A stretch of DNA of 64,000 bases from Chloroflexota bacterium. Its GTDB lineage: Bacteria > Bacillota > Sulfobacillia > JBFLWA01 > JBLNDB01. The stretch's first letter is position 1. Every line of letters starts with the position of its first letter. The position numbers were made by a program, and so were the translations under genes. The stretch covers positions 2,161-66,160 of the forward strand of contig JBLNDB010000096.1 in assembly GCA_050261235.1 (NCBI GenBank), read 5' to 3'. Under the pieces are notes generated by a model, which was given only the letters and a program-made list of their open reading frames with translations, was not told where the DNA came from and ran no database searches. Positions 1,355 through 47,233 of the stretch are shown piece after piece.

Positions 1355-1391
1355 GGACCGCTTGCCCCTGCCCGAGTCGGATCTGTCGCCG

Positions 1392-1430
1392 CAAGCCCGC
1401 CGTCGGTTGACGGCGGGCTTGCGTTGTCCG
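1392..1430 (+). terminator. Stem-loop after pyk (gcaagcccgccgtcggttgacggcgggcttgc) with a weak T tract
   Basis: A perfect inverted repeat was seen directly in the sequence, followed by gttgtcc. There is no strong U run, so intrinsic termination is uncertain. Confidence 0.4.
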
Positions 1431-1481
1431 GGCATACTAGCTGAGACAGAGAGACAGGCCAGACCGGGAAGGGTGTCCACG

Positions 1482-3215
1482 ATGAAGTTCTTCAGTGGAG
1501 TCAGGTTGCGGCTGCGCGGGCAGCCGACCACTCAGCGCAAGGAAGCTCCGCCGCCGGGCGCCGGGCGACTGACGCCGCGCGCCTGGAAGGTGCGACACGG
1601 GCGGCCGGCGGAGAAGCCCGCACCGGAAGGCCAACCGCTATCGCGGTCGCTCGCCGGCAATGTCGAGCGGTTGAAGGAGATGATGGGCCGCGACAACGCT
1701 GACGTCATCATCCGCAGGTTCATCATCGGCACCAAGCCATCCATCCAGGCAGCGCTGTTCTTCATCGAGGGGCTGGCTGACCGGACCACTCACATAGAAG
1801 GCATTATCAAGCCGCTGATGGTCCAGTCGACGCGCGAGGTCGGCATGGCCGCGCCCGATCCGCGCGAACTGGCCGAGGTCATCCAGTCGCAGTTGATGCC
1901 GACTGCCGAGGCCTTGACCGTGACGACTCTCGAGGAAGTCGTCGACCACGCGATGACAGGCGAGTCGGCGCTGCTCATCGACGGGGCCACCGAGGCCGTC
2001 ATCATCGAGACACGCGGCTGGAAGAGCCGCGGCGTCGAGGCGCCGGAGACGGAGATCTCCATCCGGGGCCCACGCGAGTCCTTCACGGAAGTGTTGCGGT
2101 TCAACACCGCGCTCATCCGCAGGCGCATCCGCGACCCGCGCCTGCGGCTGGACGGGATGAGAGTCGGCCGGATGTCGCGGACAGATGTCGTAGTCGGCTA
2201 CATCCACGGTCTGACCGACCCGGATCTGATCACGACCGTGAAAGAGCGCATCAAGGCGATCGAGACTGACTTCATCCCAGACAGCAGCTACATCGAGCAG
2301 TTCATCGAGGACAGACCATTCTCGCCCTTCCCCCAGGTGCAGTACAGCGAACGGACCGACCGCGCCACTGCGGCGCTGGCTGAAGGTCGCCTGATCATCA
2401 TCGTCGACGGGTCGCCGATGGTGCTGATCATCCCATCGACCTTCACGACTCTCATCCAGGCGCCGGAGGACTATTACGAACGACCGATCCTCGGCACGTT
2501 CTTCCGCATCATCAGAAGCCTGTCCGCGTTCATCTCGCTGACCCTGCCGGCGTTCTACGTCGCCATCACGTCGTTCCACCAGGAGATGCTGCCGACCGAG
2601 TTGATACTGGCGTTCGCCGCGGCCCGCGAGCGCGTGCCGTTCCCGGCCATCGTCGAGCTGCTCGTCATGGAGGTCTCGCTCGAACTGGTCCGCGAGGCCG
2701 GCCTTAGGCTGCCATCGCCGGCCGGGCAGACAGTCGGCATCGTCGGCGCGCTCCTGCTTGGTCAGGCGGCAGTCCAGGCTCAGATCGTCAGCCCGATCAT
2801 CGTCATAGTCGTGGCGCTGACTGCCCTGGCGTCGTTCGCGGTGCCGCACTACTCGACGGGGATCGCCATCCGCGTGCTGCGATTCCTGCTGCTGATCCTC
2901 GGTGCCACGCTCGGGTTGTTCGGCGTTACCGCGGGCATGACCGCGATAACCATTCACATGGCCTCCCTGACATCGCTCGGCACGCCCTATCTGACCCCCC
3001 TGGCGCCACTGCGGCCGCGCTCGGCGCTGCTTGACACGGTTCTCCGCGCGCCCCTCTGGCGGCAGGACCTGCGCCCGGGCTGGCTCCACCCGCGCGACGA
3101 CCGGCGCCAGGCCAGGATCACCAGGCCATGGTCCAGCACCGCTCCTGACGCGGCGGGCGGTGGCGGCAAGACAGGCGGCAGGAAAGGCGGCAAGAAGGAG
3201 AGACGGCGGTCGTGA
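1482..3215 (+). CDS. Spore germination protein, GerA/GerKA family (germinant receptor A subunit)
   Basis: Start ATG at 1482 is preceded by gggaagggtg. The body shows GerA-family architecture with a soluble N-terminal domain and a C-terminal membrane domain. The C-terminal tail is unusually rich in Gly, Lys and Arg. The 3' end overlaps the next gene (GTGA). Confidence 0.85.
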   Translation: MKFFSGVRLRLRGQPTTQRKEAPPPGAGRLTPRAWKVRHGRPAEKPAPEGQPLSRSLAGNVERLKEMMGRDNADVIIRRFIIGTKPSIQAALFFIEGLADRTTHIEGIIKPLMVQSTREVGMAAPDPRELAEVIQSQLMPTAEALTVTTLEEVVDHAMTGESALLIDGATEAVIIETRGWKSRGVEAPETEISIRGPRESFTEVLRFNTALIRRRIRDPRLRLDGMRVGRMSRTDVVVGYIHGLTDPDLITTVKERIKAIETDFIPDSSYIEQFIEDRPFSPFPQVQYSERTDRATAALAEGRLIIIVDGSPMVLIIPSTFTTLIQAPEDYYERPILGTFFRIIRSLSAFISLTLPAFYVAITSFHQEMLPTELILAFAAARERVPFPAIVELLVMEVSLELVREAGLRLPSPAGQTVGIVGALLLGQAAVQAQIVSPIIVIVVALTALASFAVPHYSTGIAIRVLRFLLLILGATLGLFGVTAGMTAITIHMASLTSLGTPYLTPLAPLRPRSALLDTVLRAPLWRQDLRPGWLHPRDDRRQARITRPWSSTAPDAAGGGGKTGGRKGGKKERRRS

Positions 3216-4309
3216 AGGGCAAAATCAGCCTCATCGAGTTGACCATCATCTCGACCATCCTCATCGTCGGCACAGTGTTCATCCAACTGCCGGCGCGCCT
3301 GGCCCTGCTGGCCGAGCAGAGCGGCTGGCTCGGCATCCCGCTGGCCATGATTCCCGGCATTCTGCTGGCCCTGGCCATCGCCTGGCTCCATCGCCGGTTT
3401 CCTGACCAGTCTCCCGTCCGGTACATGCGCGAGATACTGGGTGAGCCCCTCGGATCGCTGTTCGCCATCTACATCACCGCTCTGCTCCTGGCCGCAGCCG
3501 CGTTCCTGGTGCGGGATTTCTCCGTGGCCATCATCATCGGCGCTCAGCCGCTGATGCCGCTGTCACTGGTGGTTGTCATCTTCCTGCTGTTGCTTCTGTT
3601 CATGACCTTCTGGGGGCTCGAGGTGATCGCCCGCACCGCGGTTGCGTTCCTGCCCTACATCGTCATCTCGCCGATCCTGGTGACCATCGGCAATCTGCGC
3701 TTCTCGCAGCCGGGAAGGCTCTTGCCCTTGCTCGGCGCGGGCCTGAAGCCGATTGCCGCCGCGACGTTCACCTCATCGGTCTACTTCAGCGAGCTGTTGA
3801 TCATGTCGGCCGTGCTGCCCAGAGTCCGTGACGCCCGTCGGGCGTCACTGGCGCTGTCGGCGGCCGTCCTGCTGGCCGTGCCGCCACTGGCGACGGTGGC
3901 GGCTTCGGCCGTCGCCGTCTTCGGCCCGACCGGGACGGCGCGGGCAGTCGTGCCTGGGCTCGAGCTGGCGCGCATGATCAGTTTTGGCGAGTCCCTGCAG
4001 CGCGTCGAGGCGGTGTTCGTCGTCTTCTGGATGATGGCGGCCATGATCAAGGTGGGCGTTTTCGTCTGGGTCGCCAGCGAGATGCTGGCCGAGACCATCC
4101 GCATCGAGAACTACCGGCTGTTGCTGCCGTCCATCGGCGCGCTGGTGTTCGTCCTCGCCATGCTGCCCCAGCACTTCTGGGATCAGACGCTCGCCTTCGA
4201 GGTGCTGGCTCGACTGATCGCGATATCGTTCTACACGACCCCGGCCGTGCTCATCGCGGTGGCTCTGATCAGACGAAAGGGTGGTCGGGCGAGCAATGGA
4301 CAACAATAA
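3212..4309 (+). CDS. Spore germination protein, GerAB/GerKB family (amino acid permease-like B subunit)
   Basis: Polytopic membrane protein of about 365 aa. Its GTG start overlaps the stop of the A subunit. This is the classic B-subunit position in a gerA-type tricistronic operon. Confidence 0.85.
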   Translation: MKGKISLIELTIISTILIVGTVFIQLPARLALLAEQSGWLGIPLAMIPGILLALAIAWLHRRFPDQSPVRYMREILGEPLGSLFAIYITALLLAAAAFLVRDFSVAIIIGAQPLMPLSLVVVIFLLLLLFMTFWGLEVIARTAVAFLPYIVISPILVTIGNLRFSQPGRLLPLLGAGLKPIAAATFTSSVYFSELLIMSAVLPRVRDARRASLALSAAVLLAVPPLATVAASAVAVFGPTGTARAVVPGLELARMISFGESLQRVEAVFVVFWMMAAMIKVGVFVWVASEMLAETIRIENYRLLLPSIGALVFVLAMLPQHFWDQTLAFEVLARLIAISFYTTPAVLIAVALIRRKGGRASNGQQ

Positions 4310-5564
4310 GGCCTGGCGGATCATGCAGGCAGTGCTGCTGGTCCTTGCCATCGCCGCCGTGCCGGTCCTGAGCGGCGGCTATGGCCGCCGTGAGGTCGAA
4401 GACACGGCGTTCGTCCTCGCGCTCGGGTTCGACCGGGCGCCCGACGGACAGGTCGCTGTCACCAGCCAGGTCGCCATCCCGGCCAAGGCCAAGGAGGGCG
4501 GCGGTGGCGGTGGCGATCTCCCGGTGATGGTCGTGACCAACACCGGTCGCACCGTCGCTGAGGCATTGCAGCAATTCGCCCTGTCGTCCAACAAGGAACC
4601 GTTCTGGGGCCACGTACGGGTGGCGGTGTTCGGCGAGGAGATCGCCCGTGAAGGCATTGCTCCGGTACTCGACTTCCTTGCCCGCAACCACGAATCGCGC
4701 GTGCTGATGTGGACAGCTGTGACGACCGGGCGGGCGAGCGACATTCTCGCCGCCAAAGCGCAGACCGAGAACCTGCCGGCGATGTTCCTGTCCGGCCTGA
4801 TAAGCCAGTCGCGCATACACTCGCTGGCGCCCATGACGACGCTATTCGACACCCTGCGGGAGATCGACGTGCGCACTGGCGATCCAGTGCTTCCGCTCAT
4901 CGATCTCGTCCAGCCCGGCACTCAGATCAAGCCAGGCGAGTCCGGTGGCGGTGGGCAGTCGAGCGGCGGCAGCGGCGAGCAGCAAGCTGCCGGAGAAGAT
5001 GCGAATCCGGTGCGCCTTGAGGGTGCCGGAGTGTTCCGTGACGACAAGCTGGTGGGCTTTCTCGACACCGAGCAGTCGCGGGGTCTTCAGTGGTTGCGGG
5101 GTGGCGTAAGGAACACGATCGTGACTTTCGCCGACCCGACGACCGGCGCGAGCGGGGCTTTGCGCGTGTTCGCCTCACGGCGTTCCGTCGTCAGCAGCAT
5201 CGATTTCGCCGACATCTCCCGCAGCCGCTTCAGGGTCAGAATCGAGGCCGACGCTTACTTCATCGAAAACACCGGCGGACCAGACGTGTTGAGCGCCGAG
5301 GGGCGGACCGCAGTCGAGAACGCAGCGGCCGCTGTCATCAGGAACGAGGCCATGGCTTCTCTCGACATTGTCCAACACCAGTATCGAGCAGACGTTCTTG
5401 AACTCGGCGAGCAGGTTCGCCGGCGGATGAGCAACGCTGCTTGGGAGCAGGTGCGCAGCACGTGGTTCGATGCCTTGTCGGACGTCCAGGTCGAGGTCAC
5501 TGTCGATCTCAAGCTGCGGCGGCCGGGACTGCTGACCGGCAGAGTCGGTCTCGGACGTCGCTAG
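4296..5564 (+). CDS. Spore germination lipoprotein, GerAC/GerKC family (C subunit)
   Basis: N-terminal signal-like segment MDNNKAWRIMQAVLLVLAIAAVPVLSGG followed by a Ger(x)C-like domain. It is the third gene of the operon. The start at 4296 was chosen over 4281 for better RBS spacing (gggtgg, 11 nt). Confidence 0.8.
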   Translation: MDNNKAWRIMQAVLLVLAIAAVPVLSGGYGRREVEDTAFVLALGFDRAPDGQVAVTSQVAIPAKAKEGGGGGGDLPVMVVTNTGRTVAEALQQFALSSNKEPFWGHVRVAVFGEEIAREGIAPVLDFLARNHESRVLMWTAVTTGRASDILAAKAQTENLPAMFLSGLISQSRIHSLAPMTTLFDTLREIDVRTGDPVLPLIDLVQPGTQIKPGESGGGGQSSGGSGEQQAAGEDANPVRLEGAGVFRDDKLVGFLDTEQSRGLQWLRGGVRNTIVTFADPTTGASGALRVFASRRSVVSSIDFADISRSRFRVRIEADAYFIENTGGPDVLSAEGRTAVENAAAAVIRNEAMASLDIVQHQYRADVLELGEQVRRRMSNAAWEQVRSTWFDALSDVQVEVTVDLKLRRPGLLTGRVGLGRR

Positions 5565-5897: not shown

Positions 5898-7280
5898 ATG
5901 GACTTTGACCGCGAGCTGGTAGCTGAGCCATTCCGCATCAAGATGATCGAAAAGGTCAAGCTGACGACCCGCGAGCAGCGCGAGAAGCTGATTGCCGACG
6001 CCGGCTACAACGGCTTCCTCCTCCGCTCTGAGGACGTCTACATCGACCTGCTCACCGACAGCGGCACCGGCGCTATGAGCGATTACCAGTGGGGCGGCCT
6101 GATGCAGGGCGACGAGGCCTATGCCGGCAGCCGCAACTTCTGGCATCTCAAGGATGTCATCAAGGACCTGATGGGATTCGATTACGTGATCCCGACCCAT
6201 CAGGGACGCGCAGCGGAGAACGTCCTGTTCACCACGCTCCTCAAGCCCGGCCAGTCGATTCCGAACAACATGCACTTCGACACGACCAAGGCGCATGTCG
6301 AACACAAGCGCGGCCGCGCCGTCGACCTCGTCTGCCCGGAAGGCCTCGAGGCCCAGTCCGACTACCCGTTCAAGGGCAACATGGATGTCGACCGCCTCGA
6401 CGCGTTCATGAAGGAACACGGCAGCGACAAGGCGCCGTTCATCATGATGACGGTGACCTGCAACAGCAACGGCGGTCAGCCGGTGTCGATGGCCAACATC
6501 GGGGCCGTCCGCCGCATCGCCGACAAGTACGGTGTGCCGCTGTTCTTCGACGTCGCCCGCTTCGCCGAGAATGCTTACTTCATCAAGCAGCGCGAGACTG
6601 GCTATGCGACCAAGAGCATCAAGGAGATCGTTCGTGAGATGTTCTCCTATGCCGACGGCTGCACGATGAGCGCCAAGAAGGACGCCATCGTCAACATCGG
6701 CGGCTTCATCGCGCTGAGGAGCGAGAAGCTGTACCGCGAATGCATGGTCTGGGCCGTCCTGTTCGAGGGCTTCATCACCTACGGCGGCCTCGCCGGCCGC
6801 GACCTCGAGGCGATCGCCCGCGGCCTCGAGGAGGTCGTCGACGATCAGTATCTGGCGCAGCGCATCGGCCAGGTCAAGTATCTCGGCGATGAGCTGATCC
6901 GCGCTGGCGTGCCGATCGTCACTCCCACCGGCGGCCACGCGATCTACCTTGACGTCCGCAAGATCCTGCCGGACATGCCGTCTGACCAGTTCCCCGGGCA
7001 GGCCCTCTGCGCCGAGCTCTACGTCGAGGGCGGCGTCCGCGGCGTCGAGATCGGCTCCGTCATGGCCGGTCGCGATCCCGAGACCGGCGCCAATCTGACG
7101 CCGGAGCTCGAGCTGGTACGCCTGGCGATCCCGCGTCGTGTCTACACTGATCGCCACATGGACGTCGTCGCCAGGACCTGCGCGCGCGTCATGGCGCGAC
7201 GGGACAGCATCCGCGGGCTCAGGTTCGCGTACGAGGCCCCGGTGTTGAGGCATTTTACGAGCCGATTCGAGCAGGTGTAG
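5898..7280 (+). CDS. tnaA: Tryptophanase (tryptophan indole-lyase), a PLP-dependent beta-eliminating lyase
   Basis: ATG at 5898 is preceded by gaaaggagcacgc. Tryptophanase signatures include EPFRIKMIEKVKLTTREQRE, FARFAENAYFIKQRE, SAKKDAIVNIGG, ALCAELYVEGGVRGVEIGS and a C-terminal VLRHFTSRFEQV. The match is closer to TnaA than to tyrosine phenol-lyase. Confidence 0.9.
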   Translation: MDFDRELVAEPFRIKMIEKVKLTTREQREKLIADAGYNGFLLRSEDVYIDLLTDSGTGAMSDYQWGGLMQGDEAYAGSRNFWHLKDVIKDLMGFDYVIPTHQGRAAENVLFTTLLKPGQSIPNNMHFDTTKAHVEHKRGRAVDLVCPEGLEAQSDYPFKGNMDVDRLDAFMKEHGSDKAPFIMMTVTCNSNGGQPVSMANIGAVRRIADKYGVPLFFDVARFAENAYFIKQRETGYATKSIKEIVREMFSYADGCTMSAKKDAIVNIGGFIALRSEKLYRECMVWAVLFEGFITYGGLAGRDLEAIARGLEEVVDDQYLAQRIGQVKYLGDELIRAGVPIVTPTGGHAIYLDVRKILPDMPSDQFPGQALCAELYVEGGVRGVEIGSVMAGRDPETGANLTPELELVRLAIPRRVYTDRHMDVVARTCARVMARRDSIRGLRFAYEAPVLRHFTSRFEQV

Positions 7281-7307: not shown

Positions 7308-7414
7308 GGGTAGGCCGTTCTCCATGGGATCAGCGGCCCGGCTTCATTCATCGCGCTGTCTGTTGCGCGGTGTCAAGGAGGCCGGGCCGCGATCCAATTC
7401 CGAACGGCCTACCC
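7308..7414 (+). repeat. Structured intergenic element, copy A (candidate cis-regulatory or structured RNA)
   Basis: Outer inverted repeat GGGTAGGCCGTTC...GAACGGCCTACCC encloses TCCATGGGAT, CGGCCCGGC, a TCGCGC/GCGCG hairpin, CAAGGAGGCCGGGCCG and ATCCAATTCCG. It shares core motifs with the copy at 37665-37796. It starts 28 nt after the tnaA stop. Confidence 0.45.
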
Positions 7415-7475
7415 ATTGGTGGGTCTCCCATAGTGCGCCCGCCACACCTTCTGGCGTCGGCTTCAGCAGCGCGTC

Positions 7476-7509
7476 TGTCAAGGAAGCCGGACCGTCGTTC
7501 CAATTCCGG
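7476..7509 (+). repeat. Partial third copy of the same element core (TGTCAAGGAAGCCGGACCG...TCCAATTCCGG)
   Basis: It shares AAGGAAGCCGGACCG and TCCAATTCCG with copies A and C. It lacks the outer stem and the TCCATGGGA segment. Confidence 0.35.
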
Positions 7510-7647
7510 CCCGCCCACCACTCGGGGGCACGGCCGCACAATCACCGGCAGGCCCGTAACGGCGCGTTACGGGCCTGTTCTCTCGGCTGCGCCGGCGTGT
7601 CGATCTGTGCTAGAATGGATGTACGTTGGCGGAGAGGGGGAGAGGGC

Positions 7648-12631: not shown

Positions 12632-12716
12632 GCCGAAGTGGCGGAATTGGCAGACGCGCTCGACTCAAAATCGAGAGTGGTTACCCCACGTGCGGGTTCA
12701 AGTCCCGCCTTCGGCA
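12632..12716 (+). tRNA. tRNA-Leu (anticodon CAA), type II with a long variable arm
   Basis: Cloverleaf read by hand. Acceptor GCCGAAG/CTTCGGC, D-arm GGCGGAATTGGCAGAC, anticodon stem CTCGA/TCGAG with loop CT-CAA-AA, long variable arm, T-arm GCGGGTTCAAGTCCCGC. Confidence 0.9.
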
Positions 12717-16939: not shown

Positions 16940-16974
16940 GATTGCGGAGCGATCCGCCAACCGAATAGAGTCAG

Positions 16975-17060
16975 GCCGCTAGGGGAGCTGCAAAGCTGAG
17001 ACGCGGGACACCGCAAACCCTTGGGACCCGAACTGGATAATACCAGCGTGGGGAAGTGGC
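16975..17060 (+). ncRNA. TPP (THI-box) riboswitch
   Basis: Carries the conserved THI-element blocks: CTAGGGGAGCTG...GCTGAGA...ACCC...GAACTGGATAATACCAGCGTGGGGAAG. It lies upstream of a ThiT-like ECF S-component gene. Confidence 0.8.
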
Positions 17061-17081
17061 GATCGATAACAAGACCGCAAA

Positions 17082-17110: not shown

Positions 17111-17171
17111 CCTGTCCATGGCCGCTTTATCTCCGGCGGGGGAAGCTACCAACCGCGAAGGGGGATTCGTG

Positions 17172-17726
17172 ATGCGCAACCAGAGAGTGAGAATGGTCGT
17201 CGAAGCAGGGATGGCGATCGCGCTCACAGCCATCCTGCACCAGATCAAGGTCTATCAGATGCCGTTCGGCGGTGCGGTGACCGCCGGATCGATGATCCCG
17301 CTGCTGATCATCGCTCTCCGCTGGGGCCCGGGAATCGGCATGATCGCGGGCGCCGCCTACGGACTGATCGACTACATGTTCGAGCCGTGGTTCCTCACAC
17401 CCTGGCAGTTCCTGCTCGACTACCCGGTTCCGTTCGCCCTGCTCGGTCTGGCGGGCCTGCTGCGGCGTCAGCCGTACCTCGGCGTCGCGCTCGGCGTCGC
17501 CGGGCGTTTCGCCTCGCACCTGCTGTCCGGCGTCATCTACTGGGCGGCCAGCGCCGACCAGGTTCAGGCGGGGATGAACCCGTGGGTCTACTCCGCCATC
17601 TATAATGGGCAGTACCTGATTCCCGAGCTGATCCTTGCGCTGGCTCTGCTCGCCGCCCTGATGCCGACCTTCCGCCAGCAGGGCTTCCTACTGCCGGCGG
17701 GGCAGAGGCGCGGCGGCGCGCGGTAG
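17172..17726 (+). CDS. thiT: ThiT/YuaJ-like thiamine transporter (ECF S component)
   Basis: Six-TM protein of 184 aa sitting directly behind a TPP riboswitch. The ATG at 17172 is 7 nt after GGGGG. Confidence 0.75.
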   Translation: MRNQRVRMVVEAGMAIALTAILHQIKVYQMPFGGAVTAGSMIPLLIIALRWGPGIGMIAGAAYGLIDYMFEPWFLTPWQFLLDYPVPFALLGLAGLLRRQPYLGVALGVAGRFASHLLSGVIYWAASADQVQAGMNPWVYSAIYNGQYLIPELILALALLAALMPTFRQQGFLLPAGQRRGGAR

Positions 17727-32577: not shown

Positions 32578-32661
32578 GCCGAAGTGGCGGAATTGGCAGA
32601 CGCGCTGTGTTCAGGGCGCAGTAGGCGATAGCCTGTGCGGGTTCAAATCCCGCCTTCGGCA
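32578..32661 (+). tRNA. tRNA-Leu (anticodon CAG)
   Basis: Same acceptor and D-arm as the tRNA at 12632. Anticodon loop TT-CAG-GG. Long variable arm. Confidence 0.9.
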
Positions 32662-35243: not shown

Positions 35244-35390
35244 TCGATCACCTCAGCCCGCTCCTCCTTGCAGGGGCGGGCTGTTTGTGCGTTTCCGGCC
35301 GCGACGTGCCAATTTGTGAAGCAGAGTGCAGTCGCGGGAGGACAAGCCGCAGCCCTTGTTGAACTGAGGTTCTGTTTGACCAACTCCGGG

Positions 35391-36353
35391 ATGGGAGGCA
35401 AGACATTGAGCGACATCAAACGCAACATATTGGAGGCCATCGGCCAGACGCCAGTCGTTGAGCTGCAGCGCGTCCGGCCTGCCAACGGGACGCGCATCCT
35501 GGTCAAGGTGGAGGCCTTGAGTCCCGGCGGCAGCATCAAGATCCGCCCGGCCTACAACATGGTCAAGGAAGCGATCAAGCAGGGGCGCCTCAAGCCGGAT
35601 TCGATCATCGTCGAGGCGACCAGCGGCAACCAGGGCATCGCGCTCTGCCTCGTCGGCGCCGCGCTCGGCTACCGCGTCCGGATCGTCATGCCCGCCTGCA
35701 TGAGCAAGGAGCGCCAGATGCTGATGCGCTCCTATGGCGCGGAATTGGTCCTGACCGATCCCGGCAAGGACATCGGTGAGGCGATTCTGACGGCCAAGGC
35801 GACCGCCGAGAAGATGGCGGCTGAAGATCCGCGCGTCTTCTTCGCGAGTCAGTTCACCAACGAGAACAACCCGGCGGCGCACCGCAACACGACGATCGCC
35901 GAAATTCTGAAGCAGATCGGTGACGAAACCGAGGTCGACGCCTTCGTTTCCGGCATCGGCACCGGCGGCACGATCACCGGCTGCGGCGAGGTCCTCAAGG
36001 AGAAGTTCCCGCACTGTCGGATCGTCGCTGCCGAGCCCAGCGAGGCAGCCATTCTTGCCGGCAAACCGATCGGCAATCACATTCAGCAGGGCATCGGCGA
36101 TGGCCTGATTCCGGACGTGCTCAACACGAAGATCATCGATGACATTGTTCTCGTCACCGATGATGAGGCCGCCGCCACGGCACGCCGTCTGGCGAAGGAA
36201 GAGGGACTGTTTGTCGGGGTTTCCTCCGGCACGAACGTGTGCGCCGCGCTGAAAGTGGCGGAAAAGCTCGGACCGGGCAAGACTATAGTGACGCTTTGCC
36301 CTGATACCGGCGAACGCTACCTCAGCCTCGGCGTGTTCGGCGTCGAAGATTAG
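35391..36353 (+). CDS. cysK: Cysteine synthase A (O-acetylserine sulfhydrylase), PLP-dependent
   Basis: Signatures [20 protein letters not shown] and the lysine-containing PLP site. An alternative TTG start at 35407 gives a more typical N-terminus ([16 protein letters not shown]). Confidence 0.85.
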
Positions 36354-36385: not shown

Positions 36386-37633
36386 GTGTACGAGCATCTC
36401 AAGATTGACGACCCGCAGGTCTACGAGGCCATGAAGAACGAACTGGCCCGGCAGCGCGACGGACTCGAGCTGATCGCTTCCGAGAACTTCGCTCCGCTGT
36501 CAGTGATCGAGGCTCAGGGATCCGTGTTCACGAACAAATACGCCGAAGGCTTGCCGCGGAAGCGCTACTACGGTGGCTGCGTCTACGTCGACATCGTCGA
36601 GCAGTTGGCCATCGATCGCGCCAAGGAGCTGTTCGGGGCAGAGCATGCCAACGTCCAGCCCCATGCCGGCGCCCAGGCCAATACGGCTGTCTACTTCGCC
36701 ATGCTGACCCCGGGCGACACCGTCCTCGGCATGGACCTCGCTCACGGCGGTCACCTGACGCACGGCCACCCGCTCAACTTCTCGGGCAAGTACTTCCGGT
36801 TCGTTCCCTACGGCGTCCGCGAGGACAGCGAGGTCATCGACTATGATGTCGTCGAGAAGCTCGCCGTCGAGAACAAGCCGAAGCTGATCGTCGCCGGCGC
36901 CAGCGCCTATCCGCGCGTCATCGATTTTCCGCGGCTGCGCGAAATCGCCGACAAGGCCGGCGCGATGCTGATGGTCGACATGGCCCACATCGCCGGTCTC
37001 GTCGCCGCAGGCGTCCATCCCAGCCCGGTGCCGTACGCCGACTTCGTCACCACCACGACTCACAAGACTCTGCGCGGACCGCGCGGCGGCCTCATTCTCT
37101 GCCGCAAGCAGTACGCCAAGGACATCGACCGCTCGGTCTTCCCGGGGCTCCAGGGCGGGCCGCTCGAGCACGTCATCGCCGCCAAGGCCGTTGCGTTCAA
37201 GCTCGCGGCCGGCGAGGAGTTCAAGGCCTATCAGCGCTGCGTCGCTGACAACGCCCAGGCGCTCGCCAAGGCCCTCGTGAAGGGCGGCCTGCGCTTGGTC
37301 TCCGGCGGCACCGACAACCATCTCATGCTCGTCGACCTGACGCCGAAGAACATCACTGGTCTCGACGCGCAGGAGCGGCTGGCCGAGATTGACATTACGG
37401 TCAACAAGAACGCCATTCCGTTCGACAAGCTGCCGCCGGCCAAGACTTCCGGCATCCGCGTCGGCACTCCGGCCTGCACGACCCGCGGCATGGGCGTGAA
37501 GGAGTTCGAGGAGATCGGCGCCATCATCGCCGAGTCGTTCGGCAGCGACTTCGAGGCTGTCAAGGGATCGCTCAAGGCCCGCGTGGCGGCGCTCTGCAAG
37601 CGGTTCCCGCTGTACCCGGACCTGGCCGAATAG
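36386..37633 (+). CDS. glyA: Serine hydroxymethyltransferase
   Basis: GTG at 36386 is 5 nt after GGGAGGG. Signatures [17 protein letters not shown] and the PLP-lysine region [14 protein letters not shown]. Confidence 0.9.
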
Positions 37634-37664
37634 GCGCGCACTGTCGCGGGGGACACCCTGTGAA

Positions 37665-37796
37665 GGGACCGGCGCCATTGACTGATACTCCATGGGATTC
37701 TCGGTCCGGCCCGGTTCGTCGCGCACTGTGCGCAGCGCGCCAACGCGGAAGCCGGACCGACAATCCAATTCCGTATCAGCCAAAGGCGCCGGTCCC
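37665..37796 (+). repeat. Structured intergenic element, copy C (candidate cis-regulatory or structured RNA)
   Basis: Outer inverted repeat GGGACCGGCGCC...GGCGCCGGTCCC encloses TCCATGGGAT, CGGTCCGGC, a TCGCGCACTGTGCGCA hairpin, GGAAGCCGGACCG and ATCCAATTCCG. It starts 32 nt after the glyA stop and ends 69 nt before the amidohydrolase start. Confidence 0.45.
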
Positions 37797-37864
37797 GACG
37801 CACGATGTCCCCCCCAGGTGACACCCCGCGGCGTGCGGCGGAAGCGGAGAGGGAAGAGGAAACC

Positions 37865-39067
37865 ATGGGAGGGTCGGGAATGGCTGGATTGGCGGAACTG
37901 AAGGGCCAGGCGCGCGCTGAGGTCGACCGTGAGCAGGCGCGCCTGATCGACATCTCACATCAGATCCACCGCAACCCCGAGATCGCCATGCAGGAACATC
38001 AGGCAGCGGCGCTCCTGACCGGAACGCTCGAGGCTGAGGGGTTCACCGTCACCCGCGGCGTCGCCGGCATGGAGACTGCGTTCATCGCCGAATTCGGCCA
38101 TGGCGACGGTCGCGCCGTCGGCATCCTCGCCGAGTACGACGCCCTGCCGGGCATCGGCCACGCCTGTGGACATAACGTCAGCGCTGCCGCCTGTACCGGC
38201 GCCGGTATCGCCGTCAAGCGCCTGCTCGCCGCAGGCAAGTTGACCGGCACGATCAAGGTCTTCGGCACGCCAGCAGAAGAGGGCGGCGGTGGCAAAGTCC
38301 TGATGGCCAACGCCGGGCTGTTCGCAGGCATCGATGCGGCCCTCGCCATGCATTGCGGTCAGCGCAATTCGGTCGGCGGCTCCTGCCTTGCCACCCAGGC
38401 GTTCACTTTCCGCTTCCACGGCAAGCCGGCTCACTCGGCGGCCGCGCCGGACAAGGGCGTCAACGCGCTGGACGCGGTCATCCAGACGTTCAGCGGTCTG
38501 AACGCGATGCGTCAGCACGTCCGGCCGGACGTCCGGTTGCATGGCATCATCACCAACGGCGGCCAGGCGGTCAACATCGTCCCCGAGTTCGCCGAATGCC
38601 GCATCCAGGTGCGGGCCGCCAAGAAGGCCTATCTCGCCGAGGTCATCGACCGGGTGCTGAACATCGCTCGCGGCGCTGCCCTGCAGACCGGCGCGACGCT
38701 GGACTACGAGGGGGACCTGCCGTATGACGATATCCTCGAGTGCCCGCCGTTGGCGCATCTGCTCAAGGCCAACATGGAACAGCTCGGCCTGACGGTGGAG
38801 GATCACGCCGGTCTGGTCACGCCGGCCTCGAGCGATGTCGGCAACGCCAGCTACGTCGTGCCGACGGTCGAGGCCAACTTCGCGATGTGCGGCCCCGACA
38901 TCGCCCACCACACTGAGGGCTTCCGCGAGGCCTCAGGCTCGCCGGCGGGCGACGCGGCCGCGCTCAATGCCGCCAAGACGCTGGCCATGACGGCCATCGA
39001 CCTGCTCGCCTCGCCCGCCGCCGCGGCGGCAGTGCGGGCCTGGTTTGAGCAGGCAAAGCAGGGTTAG
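37865..39067 (+). CDS. M20 family amidohydrolase (M20D aminoacylase/hippurate hydrolase/AbgB-like)
   Basis: Metal-binding motifs GHACGHN and GTPAEEGGGGK. The ATG at 37865 follows gagggaagaggaaacc. Confidence 0.8.
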   Translation: MGGSGMAGLAELKGQARAEVDREQARLIDISHQIHRNPEIAMQEHQAAALLTGTLEAEGFTVTRGVAGMETAFIAEFGHGDGRAVGILAEYDALPGIGHACGHNVSAAACTGAGIAVKRLLAAGKLTGTIKVFGTPAEEGGGGKVLMANAGLFAGIDAALAMHCGQRNSVGGSCLATQAFTFRFHGKPAHSAAAPDKGVNALDAVIQTFSGLNAMRQHVRPDVRLHGIITNGGQAVNIVPEFAECRIQVRAAKKAYLAEVIDRVLNIARGAALQTGATLDYEGDLPYDDILECPPLAHLLKANMEQLGLTVEDHAGLVTPASSDVGNASYVVPTVEANFAMCGPDIAHHTEGFREASGSPAGDAAALNAAKTLAMTAIDLLASPAAAAAVRAWFEQAKQG

Positions 39068-43714: not shown

Positions 43715-43796
43715 GTCGGAGTGGCGGAATTGGCAGACGCGTACGTTTGAGGGGCGTATGGAGGAATCCGTGCGGGTTCAAGTCCCGCCTCCGACA
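43715..43796 (+). tRNA. tRNA-Leu (anticodon GAG), copy 1
   Basis: Acceptor GTCGGAG/CTCCGAC, anticodon loop TT-GAG-GG, variable arm TGGAGGAATCCGT. A hairpin with T run follows. Confidence 0.9.
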
Positions 43797-43967
43797 CAAG
43801 AGTGCCTCCTCTTCCCGATTCGGGAAGAGGAGTCTTTTTCATTCCTGCGCCGCGGCAACGAGCTGCGGCGACTGAATTCTCCGCGCGGCGAGCGAGCCTG
43901 CAGGGGGAATCGCTACGTGGGGCGAACTATATCTCGCGGTACGGCAGCTGGCAGGAGGCATGGTCGC

Positions 43968-45356: not shown

Positions 45357-46916
45357 ATGAGTAAAGTTAACGCGGGTCGGCGCCTCTGAAAACAGGAACG
45401 AGACGGTTCCTCTCCGAAGGTGTAAGCGCCAACAAACACCCTAGGGAAGAGGGGACCCATCTCGTCATGGCGGATTTCAACGAACTCGTCGCAGTATCCT
45501 TCTCAGAGCTTGAAAGAACGCTGTTCGAAGGCTTGACCAAGTTGTTCCTCGAGGCCATGACGGAGCTGCTTTCAAGGCTTGATGCTCAGGTCGCTGGGAA
45601 GCGTGACAAGCAGCGGTATGTAATCGTTGAACGCAAGGAGACGTGCCTTGAAACCATGCTCGGGCCTTTGCGCTTCCGCCGGCGTGTTTACCTGGACCGG
45701 GAGACGGGAGAACGGGTCTACGGGCTGGACGAGGCGCTTGGACTGACGAAACGTGCCAGGGTGAGCCCGGGGCTGAAGGAAGCCGCAGTGAGGGAAGCCG
45801 TTGAGGCACCGTCGTACCGCGCGGCCCGGGACAGTCTCGAGCGCAGGCATGGCCAGCGGGTGATGAGCCACGAGACCATACGGCAGCTGACGCTGAAGAC
45901 CGGGAAGGAGATACAGCGTGCTGACGAGGCTCTGGCGCTTGAGCCCAATGGCGAGCGGAAGATCCCGGTGCTGTTCATCAAGGCGGATGGGCTGTACGTG
46001 TCAAGGCAGAAGGCAGGCAAGCGTGAAGAGCGGTTCGTCATAGCGCATGAAGGCTGGCAGCGCAGGAGCCCTGGCAGCGAAGAATACGAGCTCGTGAACA
46101 AGACGTACATACACTGCGACTCGGCCGGTGACGTCTGGGAGCAGGCGAGCCGGATGCTGTTCGCCAGATACGACCTCAGCGACACAGTTGTCGTCGTCAA
46201 TGGCGACCGCGCCAAGTGGATCCGCGAGGGAGTGCGGTACTTCCCGAAAGCCATCTACCAGTTTGACCGGTTCCATCTGCTGCGGGATGTCAAGGCGAAA
46301 CTCAGGCTGGCACCGCAGGCAAGGAAGGAAGTGCTCCAGGCTATACGTGACGGAAGGTCGCGGGATGTGCTCGATCTCATGCACAAGGTGAGACTCAGTG
46401 ACGGAAAGCTAAACGCGAGCTCGACGAACTGAGGCGCGACTTGCAGCGCTTTCCCGAGGCGATGGTGGACTACCGTGTGCGGCTGGCGATGATGGGCTTG
46501 GATACGGCCGGCATGCGAGGTATGGGCTCGGCTGAGTCCAACATGAACCACTTGGCGCGCCGACTGAGAAAGCAAGGCCGCAGCTGGTCCAGAAACGGCT
46601 TGAGAGCAATGATCCGGGTGATGATTAAGCTCTTCGAGGGCACGCTGCACCGCTTCACGCAGAGCCTGATGGACATCACGGAGCACCTGGATGCAGAGAT
46701 GCTGCTGACCGGCGCAGGCCGGATTGTGCAGGCGGCTCTGGACAAGGCGAGCTACGTCGCGGGCAAGACGTACCGGATGCCGATTCGACAAGCTGGAAGC
46801 AACGTGTCGCGTGGTCTCTCTGAGTTCATGAACCGTCTGAACCGAGCACTGCCGGCGCAGTTGGCCTAGCAGACCTCAAACGCAACACTTCGGGAAGGAA
46901 CGGCGCCGACCCGCGT
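45357..46916 (+). mobile_element. IS element, ISLre2 (UPF0236)-like, about 1.56 kb with imperfect terminal inverted repeats
   Basis: Left end TTAACGCGGGTCGGCGCC (about 45361-45378) is the reverse complement of the right end GGCGCCGACCCGCGTTTG (about 46897-46914). It encloses one transposase reading frame split in two. Confidence 0.6.
45467..46869 (+). pseudogene. ISLre2-family transposase interrupted by a single frameshift near 46415-46432
   Basis: ORF 45467-46432 (321 aa) and ORF 46441-46869 (142 aa) together make roughly 460 aa, the length of an ISLre2/UPF0236 transposase. The second frame reads through ...RKAKRELDELRRDLQRFPEAM... directly after an in-frame TGA. The break lies at GGAAAGC, consistent with a 1-nt indel in an A run. 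It is not a slippery heptamer. Confidence 0.65.
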
Positions 46917-46989: not shown

Positions 46990-47071
46990 GTCGGAGTGGC
47001 GGAATTGGCAGACGCGTACGTTTGAGGGGCGTATGGAGAAATCCGTGCGGGTTCAAGTCCCGCCTCCGACA
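46990..47071 (+). tRNA. tRNA-Leu (anticodon GAG), copy 2
   Basis: Identical to copy 1 except for one base in the variable arm (GGAGGAAT versus GGAGAAAT). It has its own promoter (TATCAT -10) and terminator hairpin (gcctcctccttctgctcgcagggggaggc). Confidence 0.9.
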
Positions 47072-47233
47072 CCGGTAAAGCCTCCTCCTTCTGCTCGCAG
47101 GGGGAGGCTTTTGCTTGCTCGACGGCTCGGCTGAAACCAGAAGCTCACCTGCGCTGTACTTGAATGGTCATGATTGTGCGTGACGCGGTCCGGAACCGCG
47201 CCGCTGGCAAAGCGGCGCAAGGGAGCGAGATCA

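Follow-up and report, generated by a model that had tools for sequence, protein, structure and literature searches.

The intergenic spacer between glyA, the gene for serine hydroxymethyltransferase, and the gene for an M20-family amidohydrolase was analyzed in a 64,000-nucleotide (nt) stretch of contig JBLNDB010000096.1 from an uncultured lineage labelled Chloroflexota; this whole stretch is referred to as the window. The segment 37665-37796 forms a single long imperfect hairpin in this spacer, designated copy B. A reading made from the letters of the window alone, here called the sequence-only reading, had described it as the second full copy of a structured element that also follows the tryptophanase gene tnaA (copy A). 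The start of glyA lies 15 nt downstream of the first reading of the open reading frame (ORF), and its TAG stop is 14 nt upstream of the hairpin in its extended form. A GGGAGGG ribosome-binding site stands before the ATG of the M20 gene, whose product has the N-terminus MAGLAELK, compared with MAGLTELK in the orthologue from the related assembly L134. The sequence-only reading had placed the end of the element 69 nt before an M20 ATG; that ATG (37866) is out of frame, and the true start is 83 nt from the end of the element, or 66 nt if the extended base is included. The spacer itself, given there as 230 nt, measures 246 nt (37634-37879).

Folding of segment 37655-37806 yielded -91.3 kcal/mol on the plus strand (z -8.6) and -105 kcal/mol on the minus strand (z -10.2), and none of 200 shuffled sequences matched the energy of the real fold. 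The inverted repeat reaches 37648-37813, with 63-nt arms that are 81% complementary. Two exact blocks are shared with copy A, CTCCATGGGAT (7320-7330 in copy A, 37688-37698 in copy B) and ATCCAATTCCG (7392-7402 and 37763-37773). They are opposed in the fold and form a symmetric 6x6 internal loop, 5' UCCAUG against 3' AAUUCC; the 5' block provides the 5' side of this loop together with the first half of a GGAU/AUCC helix. That helix and the inner stem CGGyCCGGC/GCCGGrCCG are common to copies A and B. The outer stems of the two copies are unlike in sequence, with pairing kept in both. The description of copy B as a full copy with the same blocks and helix arrangement and different stems is thus borne out by exact blocks and compensating stems. 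No K-turn, loop E or tetraloop-receptor motif appears to fit the symmetric 6x6 loop.

Further copies were sought among relatives reached through GlyA, TnaA and M20 homologues, with the surroundings of these genes read from related assemblies (L numbers). Copy A begins 5 nt past the tnaA stop codon (7278-7280). An orthologous copy after tnaA, A', was found at L131:11444-11551 (TnaA 89% identical); its stems are largely different and complementary, its 5' block is intact, and its 3' block carries one change. Copy C, at L127:9668-9773, starts two bases past the TAG stop of a CNNM/CorC gene and 227 nt upstream of glyA; it is identical in L127, L140, and the portion held by L133. Together with a decayed partial copy next to copy A (A2), this brings the total to four distinct full copies and one relic, distributed over three unrelated loci (tnaA, glyA, and the CNNM/CorC gene), and all conclusions are based on these copies in about 150 kb from the clade and its near relatives. 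The density in the clade is about one copy per 23 kb. A terminator-like hairpin stands beyond copy A and A2, which places both within the likely 3' untranslated region (UTR) of tnaA. Across copies the element is 110-165 nt long, the blocks are separated by 44 nt in copy C and by 61-64 nt in copies A and B, and the block starts are 55-75 nt apart. The layout of the family comprises a variable outer stem, the invariant 6x6 loop, an inner stem of about 14 bp that is conserved but covarying, and a variable tip.

Sequence conservation and covariation were then compared along the element. The 22 block positions were invariant at 43 of 44 comparisons, and the 10-nt stem segments adjoining the blocks showed only about 10-60% identity between copies (10-70% for those of the outer stem), mostly 20-50%. 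Among the inner-stem arms, compensatory C-G/U-A, C-G/G-C, and G-C/A-U changes were found. RNAalifold applied to the four distinct copies gave 36 pairs, 19 of them with compensatory double changes; 91.7% of the pair cells in the alignment are standard pairs, values that none of 500 shuffles reached, and sliding the 3' partners by one to three columns lowered pairing to 28-52%. A covariance model built from the four distinct copies scored 110-132 bits on their plus strands and 63-66 bits on their minus strands. The check proposed by the sequence-only reading, a covariance-model search, recovered copy B (scores in the table), and no match at E<=1 was obtained in 717 kb of unrelated genomes selected for both 9-mers at the right spacing. 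Between the orthologous copies A and A', 22 of 72 stem positions differ and 34 of 36 pairs are kept; under random substitution a mean of 20.8 pairs survived, and not one of 100,000 trials reached 34. The adjoining tnaA coding sequence differs mainly at third codon positions, as in roughly neutral divergence. The L131 stem next to the core is slightly closer to copy B (6 of 10 positions) than to copy A (4 of 10), numbers too small to decide.

The distribution of noncanonical pairs was examined on both strands. For A, A', B, and C, respectively, 2, 0, 1, and 3 G-U pairs were counted on the plus strand (sum 6), and 0, 2, 6, and 0 on the minus strand (sum 8). Copy B folds 17 kcal/mol better on the minus strand and has six A-C mismatch positions on the transcribed strand. 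The stem changes are almost all double changes rather than steps from G-C to G-U. Taken together, G-U counts without strand preference and the prevalence of double changes are more in keeping with complementarity being constrained in the DNA than with a single RNA strand being under selection.

Copy B was restricted to the source species, with an identical copy in L124-126. No element was present after glyA in L127, L132, L133, and L140 (GlyA 91-92% identical), in L134, L135, and L137, or in L128-130. The order glyA-M20 is kept in L134 (M20 85% identical) and L135 (77%), where a spacer of about 82 nt contains a simple GC hairpin followed by T-rich sequence and lacks the element. The element is not a conserved 3' structure of glyA, because every other glyA gene examined has a plain terminator-like hairpin downstream. 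In the group with 91-92% identical GlyA, copy C is complete in L127 and L140 and truncated by the contig start in L133, and the L132 contig begins just inside its 3' arm; the window is without copy C and has a terminator and cysK at the corresponding place. The copy after tnaA is present in the window and in L131 and absent in L136 (TnaA 80% identical). With the covariance model, no element was found in the flanks of the more distant L128, L129, L130, and L134-L137. By parsimony, this pattern needs at least three gains within a shallow clade in which GlyA and TnaA are about 90% identical. The copies lie 2-15 nt past the stop codon of a same-strand gene, and at two of the three loci the corresponding site in relatives, or in the window itself, is occupied by a simple terminator hairpin. 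The four copies and the relic share the orientation of the genes around them and lie in probably transcribed regions. In alignments of filled and empty sites the spacers were too diverged for insertion boundaries and exact ends to be defined. The comparative data show a dispersed, insertion-polymorphic repeat, an option that the sequence-only reading had not included.

We therefore consider, with a probability of about 0.5, that copy B is a member of a clade-restricted, REP/REPIN-like family of hairpin repeats (REP, repetitive extragenic palindromic element) that are nonautonomous and mobile or recently proliferating. At least three gains within a shallow clade and the presence of a decaying copy are the behavior expected of a dispersed, proliferating repeat. 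Roughly even odds are likewise given to the proposal that copy B entered the glyA-M20 spacer in this lineage alone, as a recent insertion; since relatives lack the element at this site, it would have arrived as a dispersed repeat and would not be dedicated to the regulation of glyA or M20. Insertions would land just after stop codons, in two cases at the terminator position of relatives. The invariant loop in its conserved fold could serve as the recognition feature for the copying machinery, and by analogy with IS200/IS605 and REP/RAYT systems the likeliest copying enzyme would be one acting on folded single-stranded DNA. Copy B would be transcribed together with glyA, probably in a glyA-M20 transcript, since the genes are co-directional and no promoter or terminator signal surrounds it: a scan of 37300-38100 returned no terminator-like site, no T-run follows the hairpin (the sequence downstream is TGTCCCCCCCAGG), and no promoter-like signal, including one for M20, was found around or inside copy B. 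In such a transcript the stem-loop (about -90 to -108 kcal/mol) might, judged from its predicted energy and position and by analogy with REPs, act as a barrier to 3'->5' exonucleases or as a processing site. This would make the glyA segment of the message more stable and change how it is coupled to M20, as a side effect and not as a conserved device; copy B would also replace the small terminator or attenuator found between the two genes in relatives. The suggestion of the sequence-only reading that a structured 3' end protects the glyA mRNA is thus plausible as a consequence of the insertion.

Several observations weigh against a mobile repeat. Only four distinct copies and the relic were seen, in about 92 kb of clade DNA, and this DNA held no near-identical pair of copies at different loci, which would be expected after a recent burst. 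The copies showed neither a target-site duplication nor conserved terminal repeats nor a GTAG/CGTC tag. No candidate transposase was present in the annotated parts of the window; the sole transposase there is a broken ISLre2/UPF0236 gene, whose ends were not compared in detail. The orientation of all copies along their flanking genes also fits a role at the RNA level, and all three loci adjoin genes for pyridoxal phosphate (PLP) enzymes. Because pairing is kept between A and A' at about neutral divergence, the fold would have been selected at a fixed locus, or the copy replaced by another member of the family; plain decay as junk does not account for it. The mRNA-stabilizing effect, finally, is inferred from predicted energy and position only.

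These points bear on the alternative that the element is a structured RNA with a host function, located in 3' UTRs or between cistrons, with a loop that binds a protein or ligand, maybe linked to PLP or amino acids, and maintained by selection at each locus. We regard this as a serious but rather unlikely explanation. Invariant loop blocks within covarying stems are the classic signature of a functional RNA, the pairing of A and A' persists despite about 30% stem divergence, and the copies and the relic are co-oriented with genes in probably transcribed regions. The sequence-only reading had noted that tnaA and glyA both encode PLP enzymes, and this link was extended by the third locus, which also adjoins glyA; with recognizable PLP enzymes amounting to just 3 of about 55 window genes, a rough post hoc probability for loci flanking tnaA, glyA, and glyA is about 1e-3. 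The link was weakened by copy C standing directly after the CNNM/CorC gene and by relatives that manage without the element, and because sampling was centered on glyA and tnaA, the coincidence is inflated. The same genes occur in close relatives without the element, and the position is inconsistent, downstream of tnaA and glyA and yet 227 nt upstream of glyA in copy C, which abuts the CNNM stop. A decayed copy exists, the transcribed strand of copy B carries its six A-C mismatches with no strand favored overall, and there is no credible match in Rfam. A narrower form of regulation, in which copy B is a 5' leader, riboswitch, or attenuator of the M20 gene as the sequence-only reading had considered, is hardly credible. 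The element does precede M20 in the same orientation and takes up most of the spacer, but the L134 and L135 orthologues keep glyA-M20 without it, the other copies are not upstream of M20-like genes, and Rfam returned nothing for copy B. It ends 83 nt before the M20 start codon without touching the ribosome-binding site, and neither a terminator/antiterminator alternative nor a U-tract was found.

An elaborated intrinsic or "I-shaped" terminator, or a local extension of the ancestral glyA terminator hairpin, would account for the terminator-like hairpin that relatives have at exactly this place; its stem GGCCCGGCC/GGCCGGGCC resembles the inner stem of copy B, MAFFT aligns the two, and copy C stands at the place of the window terminator. 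GC-rich CCGG stems are low in complexity and common, the terminator scan was empty at copy B, and copy A has a separate terminator-like hairpin downstream. Independent local evolution is ruled out by the recurrence of the invariant 11-mers and the inner stem at loci unrelated to each other. We consider the terminator explanation improbable. The outer stems might stem from a pre-existing local hairpin into whose loop the core was inserted, but they showed no similarity to the terminators of relatives. A classic miniature inverted-repeat transposable element (MITE) derived from a DDE insertion sequence, or an integron attC site, would fit a small noncoding inverted-repeat element whose presence varies between relatives; attC sites, too, come after ORFs in a single orientation, with structure better conserved than sequence. 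Either origin is very improbable for copy B: the copies do not have their outermost arms in common, the core is flanked by inverted and not by direct repeats, with no visible target-site duplication, and no RYYYAAC/GTTRRRY core sites occur at the ends of copy B, the 5' arm being without AAC and the 3' arm without a GTT core. The copies, separated by 30 kb, lie next to syntenic housekeeping genes and not among cassettes, and no integrase was found in the annotated parts of the window. A further reading, a domesticated but still spreading module that replaces intrinsic terminators after highly expressed genes for amino-acid/PLP enzymes (tnaA and glyA) and whose loop would be a dedicated binding site in RNA or single-stranded DNA, appears doubtful to us; if true, it would be a new class of mobile post-transcriptional control element instead of a selfish repeat.

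Table 1. Positions of the hairpin copies, of the parts of copy B, and of the two flanking genes in the window
Feature	Position	Strand	Details
Copy A, after tnaA	7285-7438	+	-114.3 kcal/mol, z -12.8; covariance model 132.3 bits
A2, decayed partial copy	~7433-7528	+	retains 3' half TCAAGGAAGCCGGACCG...TTCCAATTCCG; without 5' block, most pairing gone; 6.3 bits with filters off
Terminator-like GC hairpin after A and A2	7545-7580	+	not called by the terminator scan, which uses a strict T-run rule
Copy B, full extended hairpin including outermost GGGGGACA/TGTCCCCC base	37648-37813	+	arms 37648-37710 / 37751-37813; fold -108.5 (+) and -125.4 (-) kcal/mol
Copy B, main hairpin, GGGACCGGCGCC to GGCGCCGGTCCC	37665-37796	+	covariance model 110.3 bits, E 3e-23 on +; 63.4 bits on -
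Invariant 5' block CTCCATGGGAT	37688-37698	+	identical in 4 of 4 distinct copies
Inner stem, 5' arm TCGGTCCGGC	37701-37710	+	pairs with 37751-37760
Variable apical region with its own small GC hairpin	37711-37750	+	length varies by copy
Inner stem, 3' arm GCCGGACCGA	37751-37760	+	pairs with 37701-37710; covaries
Invariant 3' block ATCCAATTCCG; 3' side of internal loop (AAUUCC)	37763-37773	+	identical in 3 copies; one change (ATCCAATTGCG) in L131
glyA (serine hydroxymethyltransferase)	36386-37633	+	NCBIfam NF000586, E 8e-186; protein 100% identical to P0001; start as called on L124
M20 amidohydrolase gene	37880-39067	+	TIGR01891, E 6e-64; frame check; gene call on L124; L134 N-terminus

To place the element among described families, database and pattern searches were performed. 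Rfam 15 at gathering thresholds returned nothing over the element, and in E-value mode copy B had no match even at E<=10. For copy A, a far sub-threshold generic-hairpin match to a Caulobacter small RNA stem was obtained (12.3 bits against a cutoff of 35), and copies C and A' matched microRNA-precursor models on both strands at 28-31 bits against cutoffs of 67-137. BLAST in distant mode gave no credible match for copy B against plasmids or for copy A against phages, with one 46-nt low-complexity hit. Exact-pattern scans of viral contigs yielded nothing, or chance matches that the covariance model rejected. In a scan of genome contigs (596 Gb) for CCATGGGAT-N(48-78)-TCCAATTCC the pattern was too loose, and the 120 listed loci were all chance matches free of hairpins. 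A scan of metagenome contigs with a 22-base pattern and gaps of 50-76 found only three copies of one chance match in a coding sequence; because this gap range leaves out short variants such as copy C (44 nt), the scan is no evidence that the family is rare. With one pattern too loose and the other gap range too narrow, both scans give little information on how far the family has spread. The sequence read comprised the 64-kb window and about 90 kb from relatives; no Y1 transposase domain was found in the ORFs scanned, and GC skew gave too weak a signal for the direction of replication.

Two other origins of the conserved blocks were considered and rejected. In every copy ORFs start from the ATG within CTCCATGGGAT, but the frame of the 3' block in C is not that in A and B, so that no peptide is conserved. 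A tRNA- or SINE-like origin was suggested by CGGAATTGG, which the complement of the 3' block shares with the D-arm of tRNAs in the window, a 9-mer match that is expected by chance. The D-arm CGGAATTGGCA is present in four tRNA genes (12642-12652, 32588-32598, 43725-43735, and 47000-47010), where 9 contiguous bases match the complement CGGAATTGGAT; the match was judged to be chance because nothing else aligns.

Some further features were observed in and around the copies. The 10-mer CGCGCACTGT occurs twice at copy B, in the single-stranded flank just upstream of the hairpin (37635-37644) and in the tip (37720-37729). The terminator loop of L135 also holds GCGCACTGT. These occurrences may be chance or a trace of how the element formed. 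In L132 and L133 (L132:1-82 and L133:62-141) there is a 60-nt insertion relative to L127 directly after copy C, composed of an AT-rich 42-nt stretch (CTTGACAAAAAGAAGAGACGGGAACCATAAGTCAATTTCGTG) followed by a second 18-nt 3' outer arm, CAGCCTTT(C/T)TGCAGCGGC. About 170 nt downstream of copy C, at L127:9928-9952, the sequence GATGGATTGCGGTTCCAATGTTGCG resembles a direct fusion of the two blocks that lacks the inner hairpin. The likeness is weaker in L132 and L133, and the sequence could be a second relic, as A2 is beside A, or chance. Contig breaks occur at or inside the element in three short-read contigs: L131 ends 13 nt past its copy, the L133 contig begins at ACTCCATGGG, and that of L132 begins immediately downstream of the 3' block. 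They would fit assembly breaks at repeated or palindromic sequence. Downstream of tnaA in L136, a different GC-rich direct repeat of about 38 nt, GGTGGGCCGGCCCGGGTGA(G/A)CCTCCGCGGCAGAGGCGC, occurs twice within 400 nt (1558-1596 and 1921-1960).

Gene content around glyA also differs among the relatives. Those with 91-92% identical GlyA (L127, L132, L133, and L140) are without the cysK and M20 genes that flank glyA in the window (35244-36353 and 37880-39067) and have a GH4 glycosidase gene directly after glyA. Differences in gene content and in the element coincide: genomes lacking cysK carry copy C, and the presence of M20 goes with that of copy B.

Elsewhere in the window, a thiamine pyrophosphate (TPP) riboswitch at 16971-17071, scored at 71.4 bits and thus over the gathering score, is followed directly by a gene for a YuaJ-type thiamine transporter (17118-17726), an ordinary and known arrangement. 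A transposase gene of the UPF0236/ISLre2 family is split into two ORFs (45467-46432 and 46441-46869) and bracketed by two 83-nt tRNA genes that are 99% identical and 3275 nt apart (43715-43797 and 46990-47072), with a gene for a major facilitator superfamily transporter between the first tRNA gene and the split transposase. This arrangement suggests an insertion that duplicated a tRNA gene, followed by inactivation of the transposase. The window also carries a GerA/spore-permease/GerAC germination operon (1362-5564) and DegV, YuaJ, and phosphotransferase system (PTS) genes. The nearest named TnaA homologues outside its own clade are from Bacillota, though the metagenome-assembled genome is labelled Chloroflexota; either this label could be mistaken, or spore formation could occur in a lineage with an unusual placement.

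If copy B is indeed a mobile repeat, the copies would represent a previously undescribed family of hairpin repeats in an uncultured lineage, in which the internal loop and inner helix are conserved and the rest turns over by compensating changes. Such an architecture is unlike that of tagged REPs and MITEs. The element also makes a case for separating the equation of covariation with functional RNA from covariation in a DNA palindrome, since a riboswitch-like signature is found here in a family that is polymorphic for insertion, includes a decayed copy, and shows no preference of its G-U pairs for either strand. The glyA-M20 spacer should accordingly not be annotated as a regulatory leader.

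Among known systems, ERIC/IRU, Correia/NEMIS, BOX, and RUP elements are repeats of 100-150 nt that form long hairpins in mRNA, in 3' UTRs or between co-transcribed genes, and alter mRNA stability or processing. They have conserved terminal inverted repeats, usually target-site duplications, and copies that are alike throughout; in the present family, conservation is limited to 22 nt and the inner stem. With the cis-regulatory RNAs of Rfam, the element shares invariant unpaired nucleotides inside covarying helices, but it has no conserved downstream gene family and no expression platform and is absent from the orthologous loci of relatives.

REP elements are short palindromes (20-40 bp; 21-65 nt) with an unpaired GTAG or CGTC at one end (PMC3733652, PMC6006769). 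A tagged REP was rejected for the present elements of 110-165 nt: a GTAG is found in the outer stem of copy A (7309-7312) and in the L131 flank, with no equivalent position in B or C. REP and IS200/IS605 hairpins are recognized as folded single strands by Y1 HUH transposases (PMC6006769). As in IS200/IS605, where orientation is strand-specific and unpaired or mismatched bases rather than stem sequence give specificity (PMC6006769), recognition here would depend on unpaired bases of a folded single strand, and the orientation of the copies is strand-specific too. The subterminal imperfect hairpins of IS200/IS605 elements and their nonautonomous derivatives measure 20-25 nt and stand at both element ends with a guide tetranucleotide, whereas a single hairpin of 110-165 nt is found here; neither a guide nor a target tetranucleotide was identified, and tnpA and tnpB are absent from its vicinity.

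The closest likeness is to REPINs, REP doublets mobilized by RAYT/TnpA-REP tyrosine HUH transposases, of which a genome has tens to hundreds of copies along with a cognate single-copy RAYT gene flanked by the repeat. They consist of two conserved inverted segments at fixed spacing, with a hairpin spacer that keeps its pairing through compensatory changes (PMC3116915). REP and REPIN families lie mostly downstream of ORFs and occur in clusters with defunct singlets, and site occupancy differs among close relatives (PMC3116915, PMC3733652). Both they and the present elements are hairpin-forming extragenic repeats on the scale of 100 nt. The spacing of conserved segments is 55-75 nt here (block starts), compared with 71 bp in the Pseudomonas GI REPIN (PMC3116915, PMC3733652), and the less conserved spacer pairs through compensatory change, with copies downstream of ORFs, defunct partial copies, and variable occupancy. 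The blocks differ from REPs in that they form an internal loop with pairing on both sides instead of short palindromes at the ends; they are only partly complementary to each other and not themselves palindromic. The copies diverge far more than REPIN copies within one genome usually do, and the host belongs to an uncultured lineage labelled Chloroflexota, not to the proteobacteria. The combination of REPIN-like traits points to a REP/REPIN-like repeat of unusual layout, in which the internal loop, and not the ends, holds the sequence information.

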